The translations under genes and the position numbers were made by a program. Below the pieces are notes generated by a model that was not told the origin of the DNA, ran no database searches, and saw only the letters and a program-made list of their open reading frames with translations. A stretch of 64,000 nt of DNA from an uncultured Planctomycetota bacterium (GTDB lineage: Bacteria; Planctomycetota; Planctomycetia; Gemmatales; Gemmataceae): NCBI GenBank assembly GCA_963849325.1, contig CAWKHF010000007.1, positions 224,001 to 288,000 on the forward strand, written 5' to 3'. This document shows, piece by piece, positions 28,371 through 34,096 of this stretch (positions within the stretch are counted from its first letter, which is position 1; every line of letters begins with the position of its first letter).

Positions 28371-29168
28371 ATGCTTCGATACGGGTTGGTCCTGGCCGCC
28401 CTGTTGCTGGCGAGCCTGCCCGCCAGCGCCCAGCAAGCCCCCGCCACGCCGCCGGCGGCGCCGCCCGCCGACGACAAGGCGCTGGACGGCCATCTGCAAA
28501 ACTGGGAACGAGCCATGAAAGACGTGACGGCCCTGGCTGCCCAGCTTATCCGCATCGACAAGGACCGCACCTTCGAGCAGACCGTCAAGCTGGTCGGCGA
28601 AGCCTACTACATGAAGGACGGCACCGGACCCACCGCGCTCAACCTGGCGCAGCTGGAGATGCGCCTGGACGGCAAAAAAGAGATCAAGGAAAAGTTCATC
28701 TGCACCGGCACTTACCTGTACCAGTACCTGCCGGAACAGAAGGAAATTCGCGTCTACGAGTTGCCCAAGCCGAAGCCGGGACAGGTGGCCGAGGACAATC
28801 TGCTGTCGCTGCTGTTCGGCATGAAGGCCGCGGAGGCCAAGGGCCGGTACAACCTCAAGCTGGCCAAGGAAGATCAGTATTACATTTACGTGGACATCGC
28901 GCCGCGCTCGCCGGCCGACCGGGCCGACTTCCAGCGCGCCCGCCTGGTGCTGAACAAGACCAACTACCTGCCGCGCCAGCTGTGGTTCGAGCACGCCAAT
29001 GGCAACGAAGTCATGTGGGACATTCCCAACCTGCGCAGCGACGTTAAGCTGGATCGCCGCGCCTTCGATGCGCCCAAGCCGCCGGAGGGTTGGAAGCTGG
29101 TGCCCGTCACCCGCGAGGCGCAGTCGCAGCCGCGCATCGTTCGTCCCACCGGCCCCGGCAGCCCATGA
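28371..29168 (+). CDS. Planctomycete LolA-like periplasmic protein (TIGR03009-like)
   Basis: Strong SD, signal peptide, LDGHLQNWE, EKFICTG, LSLLFGMKAAEAKGRY, YLPRQLWF, PPEGWK. Confidence 0.75.
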   Translation: MLRYGLVLAALLLASLPASAQQAPATPPAAPPADDKALDGHLQNWERAMKDVTALAAQLIRIDKDRTFEQTVKLVGEAYYMKDGTGPTALNLAQLEMRLDGKKEIKEKFICTGTYLYQYLPEQKEIRVYELPKPKPGQVAEDNLLSLLFGMKAAEAKGRYNLKLAKEDQYYIYVDIAPRSPADRADFQRARLVLNKTNYLPRQLWFEHANGNEVMWDIPNLRSDVKLDRRAFDAPKPPEGWKLVPVTREAQSQPRIVRPTGPGSP

Positions 29169-29385
29169 CGCACCAGGGCCATCCGCTTGTGCGAGCATCG
29201 GGGTCCGGCGCGCACCGGCCGGACCACGATGCTTGCGCGCCTCCCGTCTCCATCTTTCGGGGAGAAAAAAGCCTCCTCTCCCGCTTCCAGGCTTTATAAT
29301 GACAGCACCCTGGGAAGGCCGCAACCGCCGGGTGGGGCGGTCCTTGCCTACGAACCGTGTCCCCTTTCTTCAAGGAGCTGTCCCG

Positions 29386-30100
29386 ATGCGTCCTCACGTG
29401 AAATGGCTGTTGACGGCGGCCCTCGTCGCCGTGGTGGCCGCGCCCGCCGCAGGCCAGCTCCTCCCGGGCGGCAGGATCCCCCTTTTGCAGAATGGCCTCG
29501 ATTCGTCGATCCTCCTGCTCAACTCCGGCGTCCAGAAAGAAATCAAGCTCAGCGACGAGCAGCGCGACAAGTTCCGCCAGATCGTCAAGGGGGTTCACGA
29601 CAAATATCAGCCGGAGCTGAACAAGGCCATCGCGGCCCGCGATCAGAAGCAGTGGCTCAAACTCATGGGTGAATCCACCCGCGGAGACGTCGGATCGCGT
29701 CCACAAAGCCCTCCCCGACCTTCTCCAGCCGGAACAGGCCAAGCGCCTCCAGCAGATCGAGTTGCAGGTCAACGGCTTCCTGTCTCTGAACAAGCCGGAC
29801 GTGCAGACACAGCTCAACCTCACCGAAAAACAACGCGACGAAATCAAGGAGATCAACGACGGCTTCAAGCAGGATCTCGCCGAGGCGGTGAAGGATGCGG
29901 CCGCTTCGGCACCGGAGAAACTCCTGGAAAAGGCACGTCAGGCCGTCGAGACGGCCCGCAAAATCAAGACCTTGGCGGACGCGGCCACCAAGAAGGCGTT
30001 CGGCACGCTGACCGACGAGCAGCGGAAAACGTGGAAAGAAATGACCGGGGAGAAGTTCGAGTTGAAGCTGGAGCTCCTGAACCGGCCGAGCAAACGCTAA
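29386..30100 (+). CDS. Exported LTXXQ-motif (Spy/CpxP-like) helical protein; frameshift near 29680
   Basis: VQKEIKLSDEQ, LQPEQAKRL, LNLTEKQ, LTDEQRKTWKEMTGEKF. Confidence 0.75.
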
Positions 30101-30105
30101 TAGCC

Positions 30106-30161
30106 ATCGGAGCCTGAAGCGTAAGCGAAGAGCCCTCTTCGCTTACGCTTCAGGCTCCGAT
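30106..30161. repeat. REP-like palindrome
   Basis: ATCGGAGCCTGAAGCGTAAGCGAAGAG and its reverse complement; same family as the 18376-18801 ends. Confidence 0.9.
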
Positions 30162-30181: not shown

Positions 30182-31175
30182 GTGACCAACGGCGACCGTT
30201 CGCTGGCCATCTTCATCGACTTCGAGAACCTCGCCCTGGGTTTCCAGGGACGGCGCGATCGTTTCGACATCGAGCGCGTGCTCGAACGGTTGGTGGAGAA
30301 AGGCAAGATCGTCTGCAAGAAGGCGTATGCCGACTGGAGCCGCTTCGCCAGCTTCACCACTCAGCTGCACGAATCGGCCATCGAGCTGATCGAGATCCCG
30401 CGCCGTGCCCAGAGCGGCAAGAACTCGGCCGACATTCGCCTGTGCGTCGATGCCATGGACCTGGCTTATTCCAAGGACCACATCGACACCTTCGTCGTCG
30501 TCTCCGGCGACAGCGATTTTTCGCCGCTGGTGTCCAAGCTCAAGGAGTTGGGCAAGCACGTCATTGGCCTGGGCATGCAGGAATCGACGTCCGACCTGCT
30601 GCGCGACAACTGCGATGAGTTCATCTACTACGAGGACCTGGGTAAACAGCCGGCGCTGGTGCCGACGATGGAGGCGCACCTGCCCGAGGCCAAGCGCAAG
30701 GCGTTCGCCCTGCTGATGGAGTCGCTGTTGGCCCTGCGCCGCGAGAACAAGGAGGTGCTGTGGTCGTCGATGATTAAGGACACGATGAAGCGCAAAAAGC
30801 CGTCTTTCAACGAGTCGTATCACGGCTACCGCACCTTCAGCGAGCTTCTCGAAGACGCCCAGAAGGAAGGACTGGTCGAGCTGGAGACGGACAAGCGCAG
30901 CCGCACCTATGTCGTGACGCGCTTCGGCGAGGAGTTGAGCGTCCCCGCGGCGCCCGAGATGGCCCCGGCGAAGAAAAAGTCGCGGCGGCGGCGCGGCTCG
31001 TCCAAGCGGAAGACGAAGGCGACCGACGCCGCCGAAGCGGGGAACGGCTCCTCCGCCACGTCGGACAGCACGCCGGCCGAATCCGCGGCGTTGCCGGAGG
31101 CGCTCTCCCGAGTCGGACGCGGAATCCTCGCCATCGGTCGAGTCCGGGATCGAGGACCACGACATTCTGTTTTGA
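30182..31175 (+). CDS. NYN domain (LabA/DUF88) protein with OST-HTH/LOTUS domain; 3' end inferred through a frameshift near 31100
   Basis: AIFIDFENL, KAYADW, GKNSADIRLCVDAMD, VSGDSDFSPL, CDEFIYY, PSFNESYHGYRTFSELLE. Confidence 0.88.
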
Positions 31176-31255
31176 CCCGTGCCGTGGCCGGCGGTCTTCC
31201 TTGTCGTGAGCTACACTTGCGCCAGACGTGTTGCTCTCCATCGAGGAACGCCATC

Positions 31256-32514
31256 ATGAATCGCATCCTGCCGCGATTGTTCATCTCCGCGTTCGCGCTG
31301 TGCGGCGGACTGTCGGCGCACGCCGTCGAGCCGGCCGCTCCCGAGTCGTTCGCCGACCTGCATCGGCTCATCAAGCCGACCGCTAAGGAAGACCGTTGGA
31401 ACCGCATCCCCTGGTTGACGAGCCTGTGGGAAGCACGGCGGCAGGCGGCGGCCAAGGGCAAGCCGATCCTGCTGTGGGAGATGGACGGTCATCCGCTTGG
31501 CTGCACCTGAAACAACGGAGTCGCGGGCCGTGCGCTCGCTTTCTCCGATACCGAAGTCATCCGCCTGGCCACGGAGGAATACATCGCCGTCAGCGGCGAC
31601 GAGTGGTATCAGCGTCGCCGCCGGGACGCCGAGGGCGACTTCCTCCGCCGCGTGGCCGAGCAGAACCCCAACAAGGGCGACGAGGGCCAGAGCCGTCAGG
31701 GTCTGTACTGCTTCACGGCCTCCGGCCAGCTGCTGGCCTGCAACAACCACCAGGACGCCGACGCCGTGCGCGATCTCCTGGAGCAGGGGCTGGCCGCGTG
31801 GAACCGTCTGCCCGACGACGAGCGCCGGCCCGGCGCCGTCACGGTGCCTGCTCTCCGCAAGACCGACGCGGAGTTCACGCGCCAGCCGCCGGCCGGCGGA
31901 CTGGTCCTCAACGTCTACACGCGCATTCTCGATCGAGAAGGGCGACGGCCGATACTGCCGCGGCAGTTGCGACTTCCCCGGCGGCGAGCGGTCCGCCCGC
32001 GATCACCTGTGGCTGAAGCGATCCGAGTGGCGGAGTCTCGTGCCGGCCAGCGCGAAGAAGGGCGACCGCATCGACATGCCCGCCGCGCTCGCCGAGCGTC
32101 TGCTGCGCTATCATCTCGTGGACAACACGCGCGGCGAACCGTCCTTCTGGGAGGCGCGAGAGGTCCGCAAAAAGAGCCTGACCTGGACCGTCGAGCGCGC
32201 CACGCAGGAGGAGATGCGGCTGCGGCTGGACGGCAGTGCTCTGCTGGCCACGAACGCAAGACCCGGAGAAGGCGGAGCGCGGCTACGAAGTGCGCGTGCT
32301 CGGTTTCCTTCACTACGACCGTACACGCCAGAAAATCGACCGACTCGACCTGGTCGCCATCGGCGAGCACTGGGGCGAGGGCGAGTTCACGCCAGGATCG
32401 CGGCCGGGACGGAAACCGCTCGGCGTCGCTCTGGAGCTGAGCACCGGCGAGCGCGACTCCGACCGCATCCCGCCGCAGGCCGCCCGCGATTTGCAGGACT
32501 ATCTCGGGAAATAG
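31256..32514 (+). CDS. Putative exported selenoprotein, thioredoxin-like fold (SelN-like), Sec at codon 85; two downstream frameshifts (about 31940, 32262)
   Basis: Signal peptide; IPWLTSLWEARRQAAAKGKPILLW...GCT-TGA-NNG; the frame stays open and coding-like after the TGA; hairpin directly downstream. Confidence 0.7.
31511..31547 (+). promoter_or_regulatory. Candidate bacterial SECIS element
   Basis: CGGAG/CTCCG lower stem, GCGGGC/GCTCGC upper stem, loop CGTGC starting 18 nt after the UGA. Confidence 0.6.
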
Positions 32515-32623
32515 GGTTTAGGGTTTAGGGTTTGGGGTTTAGGGTAAAAGGCAGAAGAACGAGGGTCTGGGTTGAGGGAGAGGCCCGAGACCCTAAACCC
32601 TAAACCCTAAACCCTAAACCCTA
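32512..32623. repeat. (TTTAGGG)n / (CCCTAAA)n heptamer inverted repeat
   Basis: Arms 32512-32545 and 32590-32623, one mismatch. Confidence 0.95.
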
Positions 32624-34096
32624 TGAGAGTCGTCATCGTCGGTGGAGGCATTTCCGGGCTGGCCCTCGCCTATCGGCTCGAACAGAACGCGCCGTCCGTG
32701 GAGGCCATCGTTCTGGAGGAACGCTCCCAGTTGGGCGGCACCATTGGCACCGAGTACCACGACGGTTTCCGCATCGAAATCGGTCCCAACGGCTTCCTCG
32801 ACAACAAGCCGTTCGCCCTCGACCTGTGCCGCGAATTGGGGCTGGGACCGCAACTCCTCGCCGCCAGCGACGCGGCGCGGCGCAACCGCTATCTCTTCCT
32901 CGACGGCCGGCTGCGTCTGTTGCCGAATAGCCTGCCGTCGTTTCTGACCAGTGACGTCCTCAGCTGGCGCAGCCGGTTCTTGCTCCTGGCCGAGCGTTTT
33001 CGTCCGCCGCGGCGGGACGGCGGCGACGAGTCCATCGACGCCTTCGTCCGCCGTCGCGTCGGCCGCGAGGTGGCCGAGACACTGGCCGACGCCTTCGTGA
33101 CCGGCATTTACGCCGGCGATCCGAAGTTGCTGAGCGTCCAGGCCGCCTTGCCGCGCCTGTCCGCCCTGGAGCGCGAACATGGCAGCGTGCTACGCGGCAT
33201 GGGACGGAACGCCCGGCAGCGACGAACCGAGGCCATCGCGCGCGGCGAACCGCCTCCTTCCGCCGGGCGCATGTGGTCGTTCCGCGAAGGACTCGGACGG
33301 CTGATCGACACGTTGCGCGGCGCGCCTCCGCCATCCCCCGTTGACCGGCGTGGCGGTACGGACGATCCGGCGGACGGAGAAGTCGGGCTGGCGCGTACAG
33401 GGCGATGGCCGCGACGGCTGGGACGCCGAGGCGGTGGTGCTGGCCTGTCCGGCCCCGCGACAGGCGGCGATCTTGGCGGACGAAGACGCCGGCCTAGCGG
33501 CGGTGATCGATGGCATCCCCTTCAACCGCGTCGCCGTCGTGGCCCTGGGCTATCGCGTCGCGGACGTGCCGGGTCCGCTGGAAGGGTTCGGCTACCTGTC
33601 GCCACAGCGCGAGCGACGCGACGTGCTCGGCGTGCAGTGGTGCTCCTCCATCTTCCCCGACCGAGCGCCTCCGGGAATGGTGCTGCTGCGAGCCATGTGC
33701 GGCGGTTGGAATCGGCCGGAAATGCTCGACTGGGACGACGACCGGCTCGTCCGCGCCGTCCGCGGCGAGCTGCGGCTGGCGATGCGGATCGAAGCGGCGC
33801 CCGTTTTCCGCCACGTCGTCCGTTGGCGGCGAGCGATCCCGCAGTATCACCTTGGACACCTTGAGCGCGTCGCCTGGATCGAGGGCCGACTCGCGCATCA
33901 CCCCGGTTTGTTCCTGGGCGGGAACGCCTATCACGGCGTGGCCCTCAACGATTGCGTCGAACAGGCCGACATGCTGGCGCGGCGAGTCAGCGCGGCATCT
34001 ATCAAAAGTTGGAGACACCCTCTGATCGGAACGAGAAGGAAATCGTCCTACCGGCTTTGCGAGCGGGAACTGAACCACGGTACAATCCCCGCATGA
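32623..34096 (+). CDS. hemY: Protoporphyrinogen/coproporphyrinogen oxidase (HemY type; frameshift near 33325)
   Basis: VVIVGGGISGL, E.GPNGFL, DESIDAFVRRRVG, GIYAGDP, GFGYL, AIPQYHLGH, GNAYHGVALNDCV. Confidence 0.92.

Follow-up and report, generated by a model that had tools for sequence, protein, structure and literature searches.

A probable exported selenoprotein with a thioredoxin-like domain in an uncultured member of the Gemmataceae and its relatives in Planctomycetota and Verrucomicrobiota

A gene with an in-frame TGA codon

A stretch of 64,000 nucleotides (nt; hereafter the window, i.e. the whole stretch that was analysed) from an uncultured planctomycete of the family Gemmataceae (GenBank assembly GCA_963849325.1, contig CAWKHF010000007.1, positions 224,001 to 288,000) carries on its forward strand, at positions 31256 to 32514, a gene whose reading frame is interrupted by a TGA at 31508. 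This codon very probably encodes selenocysteine (Sec), and we hold with good confidence that the gene is a single unit specifying an exported, two-domain selenoprotein of approximately 420 residues, in which the UGA would be recoded by means of a selenocysteine insertion sequence (SECIS) and which would function as a periplasmic thiol/selenol oxidoreductase. The conserved UGA, the homologues with cysteine in its place, the covarying hairpin behind it, the Sec machinery of the genome, the fold and the position of Sec within that fold were all computed here. The gene had been singled out in an earlier note made from the sequence alone, and the placing there of the start codon, the Shine-Dalgarno sequence, the TGA and the hairpin proved exact when the sequence was read again. 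The features of the locus are as follows.

31243 to 31247, forward strand: Shine-Dalgarno-like GAGGA, read from the sequence; the ATG at 31256 follows after 8 nt
31256 to 31324, forward strand: start codon and signal-peptide-like N-terminus in the translation (residues 1–23, AHA and then VEP)
31391 to 31825, forward strand: predicted thioredoxin-like domain (approximately residues 46–190)
31502 to 31510, forward strand: Cys83-Thr84-Sec85 motif (TGC ACC TGA), the TGA at 31508–31510 being taken as selenocysteine
31516 to 31547, forward strand: SECIS-like hairpin (upper stem 31523–31528/31534–31539, lower stem 31516–31520/31543–31547)
31868 to 32511, forward strand: predicted C-terminal beta-rich domain (approximately residues 205–420), spread over three frames
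31935 to 31945 (near 31939), forward strand: first +1 frameshift relative to intact orthologues, one extra base in the DNA alignment, the exact base not being resolvable
32254 to 32260 (near 32257), forward strand: second +1 frameshift relative to intact orthologues, again one extra base in the DNA alignment
32512 to 32514, forward strand: stop codon TAG of the full-length gene, which ends the open reading frame (ORF) 32236–32514; the orthologue alignment reaches residue 418 of 420

Conservation of the TGA codon

When TGA is translated as selenocysteine (U), the frame yields the residues cited in the earlier note, proceeding from a thioredoxin-like lead-in through G-C-T-U-N-N-G and continues as sensible sequence up to approximately residue 228, while the first ATG-, GTG- or TTG-opened ORF in frame past the TGA begins, according to the ORF list of the window, at 31652 (residue 133). 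The proposal that the frame runs on beyond the TGA without a good restart is thus upheld as far as residue 228. Orthologues possess a hydrophobic N-terminus resembling that of the window protein, followed by A-x-A, and residues 1–20 of the orthologue model described below have a predicted local distance difference test (pLDDT) value of approximately 50. Judged from sequence, the protein would be exported via this N-terminal signal peptide.

A six-frame search of 41 related genomes with the 226-residue read-through product as query returned 52 matches in 21 of the genomes, with identities down to 25%; exactly one in-frame TGA is present in 49 of these matches and none in the other three. An alignment of 22 copies revealed a single TGA column common to 20 of them, at which close orthologues read G-C-(T/V)-U, distant paralogues (R/V/F)-C-U and two tandem paralogues C-R. 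The family profile was matched in 150 of 301 sampled Planctomycetota genomes, with a TGA in 139 of the 150 matches listed, and 7 of the 11 matches without it stop short of the column. Additionally, a relative is encoded in 372 of 413 candidate stretches from named genome records, and the best 80 of these 372 were analysed. The search patterns were derived from a 10-row alignment; neither required a TGA and the one that covered the active site was unable to match it. All 79 loci of the best 80 that reach the column carry TGA there (CTU in 40, CGU in 23 and CVU in 16). The sources of the best 80 are, within Planctomycetota, Gemmataceae, Fimbriiglobus, Limnoglobus, Frigoriglobus, Gemmata, a Tautonia isolate, Pirellulales, Tepidisphaeraceae and Phycisphaeraceae and, within Verrucomicrobiota, Verrucomicrobiales, Roseibacillus, Akkermansiaceae and Oceaniferula spumae NT6N.

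Public pipelines annotate such loci in pieces: among the best 150 of 1702 matches to public predicted proteins, 28 end at query residues 82–84 and 82 start at residues 89–154, while 37 cross the TGA column and three are unclear. This annotation speaks for the TGA as a true stop, which would separate an 84-residue exported peptide from a downstream protein encoded by a second gene. Such an arrangement is scarcely credible, however, given that every aligned homologue is conserved in one frame through the codon, that full-length homologues with cysteine at the column exist, that the window offers no in-frame start before residue 133, and that the thioredoxin fold extends over both pieces. The suggestion of a single protein of approximately 420 residues that pipelines split in two is therefore borne out for the family by the truncated entries, but the copy in the window is itself frame-broken.

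The residue at the column was read in 33 of the 37 annotated homologues that span it: Cys in 12 (seven of them as C-x-C), Ser in six, Ala, Gly and Asp in three each, and six further residues once each. One genomic copy has TGT at this position. The expectation that homologues would display either TGA or Cys here is supported by the TGA in 49 of 52, 20 of 22 and 79 of 79 sequences and by the Cys in 12 of 33. Trp, Arg or Gly at the column had been named as evidence to the contrary; TGA dominates among the genomic homologues, although Gly and Arg do occur in some of those that lack TGA.

In two genomes the Sec-bearing copy is followed by a tandem paralogue (L033:2913-3629 and L034:2871-3308) that has C-R at the column, with CGC or CGT for Arg, and no hairpin of at least 5 base pairs (bp); CGN arginine codons are separated from TGA by a single step, through CGA. 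The contig of the window carries, at a distance of 220 kb, another member of the superfamily, with one in-frame TGA and 31% identity (G000:C7:475737-476594). Six profile matches were obtained in total from the genome of the window, three of which are pieces of the window gene.

A covarying hairpin downstream of the TGA

The hairpin that follows the TGA has the arms CGGAG/CTCCG in its lower and GCGGGC/GCTCGC in its upper stem; the 6-bp upper stem begins 12 nt and the apical loop CGTGC (31529–31533) 18 nt past the UGA. The mere presence of a hairpin of at least 5 bp was dropped as a SECIS criterion because such a hairpin occurred in 50% of 2000 pieces of 63 nt drawn at random from this G+C-rich window (and one of at least 6 bp in 26%). 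Covariation in the six-pair upper stem was assessed in 12 sequences of common register, of which 95.8% of the cells were paired and four of the six pairs had changed on both sides. None of 500 shuffles matched the observed paired share, both-side changes or covariation score, and slid control stems were 28–54% paired.

A larger alignment of 78 distinct sequences (the window and 77 named loci) yielded a seven-pair stem with 91.9% of cells paired and compensatory changes in six of the seven pairs, among them pair 17-31 (CG 45, UA 20, UG 9), pair 18-30 (GC 68, CG 9, AU 1) and pair 20-28 (GC 33, GU 23, AU 22). No unpaired cell was observed in the four innermost pairs, and every sequence has a G at alignment column 23 in the loop (window 31530). 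The compensatory changes in both alignments, together with this invariant G, support the upper part of the two-tier hairpin that had been proposed, but the lower tier is poorly kept, with only 72.8% of its cells paired in the 78 sequences. Distant subfamilies possess a different hairpin, displaced by 5–6 nt. Six homologues without TGA were inspected at the equivalent place: three lack a hairpin of at least 5 bp and one has a hairpin of 6 bp, which is approximately the background rate.

In the SECIS element of Escherichia coli fdhF, a hairpin stands immediately 3' of the UGA and its apical loop contains a conserved G. The hairpin described here resembles that type in lying directly 3' of the UGA inside the ORF and in its conserved apical-loop G, but differs in that its stem and sequence are particular to this family; an Rfam scan of 31200–32700 at E <= 10 matched no SECIS family.

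Selenocysteine machinery

The assembly from which the window derives consists of 14 contigs at a completeness of 84.69%, and contains a tRNA-Sec (72 bits, anticodon tca), selB (313.7 bits against a cut-off of 242), selD (386.9 bits against 125) and selA (286.7 bits against 267.9), the last, however, in three pieces in different frames. The presence of selA, selB, selC and selD had been put forward as a check on the reading of the TGA, and all four were thus detected. Sec decoding appears to be common in Planctomycetota. Furthermore, 90 of the 94 Planctomycetota genomes with a strong match to the family encode selB at E <= 1e-80; as to the other four, one has a selB at 1.2e-58, two are TGA-bearing metagenome-assembled genomes, to which we return below, with none at E <= 1e-50, and one, which lacks selB, carries a form without TGA.

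Read-through of the UGA outside the Sec pathway, by a reassigned code or by near-cognate suppression, is conceivable inasmuch as SelB-free read-through is known in principle, but nothing specific favours it here and we regard it as very improbable. The full Sec machinery is present, and the covarying hairpin holds its invariant loop G at the expected distance. Additionally, several homologues, whose read-through translations were ended at TAA or TAG only, contain a second TGA at approximately residue 415–432, where the alignment to intact orthologues ends, which fits TGA as the stop codon of those homologues. The placement of Sec in a C-x-U site, as claimed in the earlier note, is accordingly supported by the machinery, the kept TGA, the Cys-bearing homologues and the covarying stem.

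Predicted fold, active site and mechanism

An AlphaFold2 model was analysed of an intact 420-residue orthologue that is 76% identical to the window protein over the first 226 residues (pLDDT 92.4; predicted template modelling score, pTM, 0.90). Structure comparison of this model placed a thioredoxin fold at residues 46–190, in which a strand (residues 71–76) is followed by a loop with C83-x-U85 and by a helix that starts at residue 86, directly after Sec85. The thioredoxin-like fold that had been claimed from sequence patterns is thus also predicted from the model, and the active residue lies where helix 1 begins. Structural relatives are exported thioredoxin-fold proteins of the DsbH/Thioredoxin_7 type (PDB 3f9u, 2ju5, 3ira and 7tkv), and by this model the domain belongs to the DsbH/Thioredoxin_7/AGR/UAS type. 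Generic folds of the Thioredoxin_7 type gave a Z of 13.4. In a profile search of PDB sequences, the Sec column fell on the leading Cys of the C-H-W-C motif in 3ira (E 0.0057), and Sec thus takes the place of the nucleophile. There is no resolving Cys of the usual kind, as the motif C-x-U-N-N-G has no Cys three residues past Sec; a partner Cys is found upstream instead, either two residues before Sec (C-x-U) or, in paralogues, adjacent to it (C-U). The family would represent a thioredoxin fold that employs Sec and an upstream Cys rather than CxxC. The C-terminal domain, of approximately 215 residues, is predicted to be beta-rich, and no convincing match to it was found among solved structures.

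From these features we infer a mechanism that begins with selenium insertion: SelB would bind the in-frame stem-loop (a stem of 6 bp that opens 12 nt past the UGA, capped by the 5-nt loop CGUGN and its invariant G) and, with tRNA-Sec, deliver selenocysteine at UGA 31508. The product would then be exported by its signal peptide. In the predicted fold, Sec stands at the N-terminal end of the first helix, a place usually held by the attacking Cys of CxxC, and Sec85 and Cys83 may cycle between the selenol/thiol state and a selenenylsulfide. The enzymatic role would be that of a periplasmic thiol/selenol oxidoreductase, active in reduction, isomerisation or oxidant scavenging, with the C-terminal beta-rich domain possibly holding the substrate.

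Homologues without Sec often constitute the outer domain of signalling proteins. Fusions were found to Pkinase domains of Ser/Thr kinases (four of the four scanned), to sigma-70-like regions (two of two) and to FecR anti-sigma factors (six of six). In these proteins (P0001, P0005, P0011, P0049, P0024, P0053, P0034, P0047, P0071, P0082, P0092 and P0107) the two-domain module forms the C-terminal, presumably extracytoplasmic part, and the Cys or Sec of the active column has been lost in most, while P0001 retains C-T-C.

As redox-dead relatives act as sensor domains, the main functional rival is binding or sensing, in which Sec and the nearby Cys would provide a ligand for a metal or small molecule and the protein would serve as a periplasmic binder or sensor instead of an oxidoreductase. 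The fusions listed above and the absence of Cys at the column in most of the fused proteins point in this direction, as do the C-x-U and C-U motifs of metal-handling selenoproteins in the available part of Table 1 of PMC13188914. It is nonetheless improbable, since the place taken by Sec is precisely that of the nucleophile in a thioredoxin fold, the closest structures belong to redox proteins or derivatives of these, and no conserved metal-related neighbour was encountered in the eight loci scanned. That kinases and anti-sigma factors carry the Sec-less module as their outer domain is a hint of a signal or substrate in the periplasm.

Observations against the proposed function and frameshifts in the window copy

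Several observations weigh against the interpretation of the gene as that of a Sec-dependent periplasmic oxidoreductase. The window hairpin has a minimum free energy of -19.2 kcal/mol, which corresponds to z = +0.44, and was equalled or surpassed in stability by 134 of 200 shuffles; as the fold alone is no better than chance, the significance of the hairpin derives from its covariation across homologues only. Non-redox residues (Ser, Ala, Gly, Asp, Arg and others) occupy the active column in many homologues, and some homologues are fused to kinases or anti-sigma factors, so that the module may also function independently of redox chemistry. The TGA-form genomes G063 and G205 (both 93% complete and fragmented) yielded no selB at E <= 1e-50. 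In 214 of the 301 sampled Planctomycetota genomes selB exceeds the curated cut-off, and the co-occurrence of the family with selB is weak evidence because selB is common in the phylum anyway. The neighbourhood was scanned at eight of 16 loci (L042-L049), and no conserved neighbour there hints at a substrate or reductant. A search of sequencing runs returned one soil-metagenome contig run (7% of the sampled words) and no RNA run. Finally, the gene contains two frameshifts, and the window copy could be a pseudogene.

A tblastn comparison of the orthologue with the window switches frame between residues 228 and 231 and again between residues 333 and 336, and owing to these two +1 frameshifts the protein of approximately 420 residues is not one open frame in this assembly. 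The shifts are likely to be assembly indels, as both flanking genes and selA are also frame-broken. The NYN/OST-HTH gene (window 30182-31510) passes into the frame of the selenoprotein without a stop, the gene for a HemY-like oxidase (window 32623-34096) shifts frame near 33312-33352, and selA is distributed over three frames at G000:C12:1294158-1295519, which suggests single-base indel errors throughout the assembly.

Alternatively, the selenoprotein family may be real while its gene in this genome has truly decayed to a pseudogene, the frameshifts being present in the DNA of the organism. That two frame changes fall inside 320 bp of one gene, with no obvious long homopolymer at either, is in keeping with this. 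It is unlikely, however, in view of the broken frames of the HemY-like gene and of the tail of the NYN gene, of the selA split over three frames in a 14-contig, incomplete assembly, which fits assembly-wide indel error, and of the protein identity to the orthologue, which is 66–75% on either side of each shift.

Comparison with catalogued families

The proteins described here form a selenoprotein family that has not been catalogued and whose general kind is known. Members are named 'hypothetical protein' in the source records, and no Pfam or NCBIfam model scored over threshold for the window pieces or for 34 aligned members. Two of the 34 touch PF13899 (Thioredoxin_7; best E 4.5e-4) and two touch PF03190 (Thioredox_DsbH; E 2.3e-3), in each case below the gathering score, and the window protein has no match to these models at E <= 1. 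The family differs from DsbH and Thioredoxin_7-type proteins in the lack of a CxxC or UxxC dithiol motif, in having Sec for the first Cys and its partner Cys upstream rather than downstream, and in bearing the extra C-terminal domain of approximately 215 residues.

The nearest catalogued selenoprotein model is that of the VPGUxxT selenoproteins (NF041382/NF041383, 'hypothetical protein OS_HP5'), which four of the 34 members match over approximately 65 residues around the active site. These matches attain 16–21 bits against a curated cut-off of 275, the orthologue of the window protein is unmatched, and the family motif is C-x-U-N-N instead of VPGUxxT. A further likeness exists to the C-terminal GCUG of thioredoxin reductase, where an adjacent or near-adjacent Cys/Sec pair is likewise able to form a selenenylsulfide; the fold and context of that enzyme are unrelated, and the likeness is one of chemistry alone. 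An analogy between this GCUG and the SCUG of selenoprotein N (SelN) is drawn in the available text of PMC12839072.

Table 1 of a May 2026 review (PMC13188914), in the part of that source available, lists 119 prokaryotic selenoprotein families with model identifiers; the window family corresponds to none of these 119 in a comparison made via Pfam and NCBIfam models, which leaves aside entries with CDD or PANTHER models only. No relevant paper on a Gemmata or Planctomycetes selenoprotein of this kind was found in the literature, the selenoprotein list in the supplement of PMC4807772 lying outside this search. Several hundred genes of soil, freshwater and marine Planctomycetota and Verrucomicrobiota that are annotated as truncated pairs of 'hypothetical protein' would be single exported selenoproteins, and their recognition would add a family to the prokaryotic selenoproteome and mend the annotation.

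Possible relationship to eukaryotic selenoprotein N

The earlier note had likened the window protein to SelN. In the ESM Atlas, a 'Selenoprotein N' cluster ranks top for the natural Cys-form homologue P0084 (score 0.91, 195 of 256 features shared), at a score level with those of the bacterial clusters of P0084 itself, while only bacterial clusters are listed for the C-terminal domain alone. The resemblance is a lead provided by one neighbour list from a protein language model.

According to the available text of two sources, SelN contains the motif SCUG, with Sec beside Cys, in a predicted thioredoxin domain (PMC7474598, PMC12839072). Sec462 is accompanied by Arg466, i.e. by an Arg at +4 (PMC12839072), and a type II membrane anchor and an EF-hand are located ahead of the redox domain (PMC7474598); no structure of SEPN1 had been solved according to the latter source, as far as its available text extends. 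Compared with SelN as so described, the window family is alike in that Sec lies in a predicted thioredoxin-like domain facing an oxidising compartment, and in that a Cys is next to Sec, as SCUG in SelN and as R-C-U-G/N in the distant paralogues of the family. In contrast to this, the window protein reads C-T-U and all 79 close named loci read C-x-U, with C-U confined to the distant paralogues, and the conserved Arg lies seven residues past Sec rather than the four given in the available text on SelN. Furthermore, no EF-hand or other Pfam domain was detected in the window protein, its N-terminus resembles a cleavable signal peptide and not a type II membrane anchor, and approximately 335 residues follow Sec in the family, the domain order being unlike that of SelN.

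The literature search retrieved no paper on bacterial relatives of SelN. The existence of a crystal structure of a bacterial SelN was not confirmed, the profile search of PDB sequences having given four weak thioredoxin-fold matches only. That the family is the bacterial counterpart, by common ancestry, of the Sec-bearing thioredoxin-like domain of SelN is a tentative proposal, and we consider it doubtful. Both Planctomycetota and Verrucomicrobiota harbour the family, in which C-U paralogues exist alongside the C-x-U form, and the named records include cultured carriers, e.g. the isolates Tautonia sp. JC769 and Oceaniferula spumae NT6N. Should the link be true, the structure and chemistry of the enzyme that is lost in SEPN1-related myopathy would become easily accessible through bacteria, and the cultured carriers with their C-U and C-x-U forms would furnish a tractable model for the catalytic mechanism and structure of this human muscle-disease protein.

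Gene neighbourhood and adjoining repeats

The gene order aldehyde dehydrogenase, LTXXQ, NYN, selenoprotein and HemY-like was found only in two genomes of the same genus (G007 and G009). The upstream gene at window 28999-30117 (ORF 29669-30100) resembles that of an LTXXQ-motif periplasmic protein, which is present at the same position in the same-genus locus L042 (PF07813, E 2.1e-7).

Directly past the stop codon, at window 32514-32625, lies a palindrome of approximately 110 nt composed of GGGTTTA repeats, a spacer and TAAACCC repeats, i.e. heptamers resembling those of plant telomeres. Rfam returned only sub-threshold, microRNA-like matches for it, and it looks like a dispersed element of the repetitive extragenic palindromic (REP) type or a terminator. 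The heptamer repeat is present at seven places on six contigs of the genome, mostly as facing forward and reverse arrays, and the heptamer pattern gave 26 matches as against none for the reversed control.

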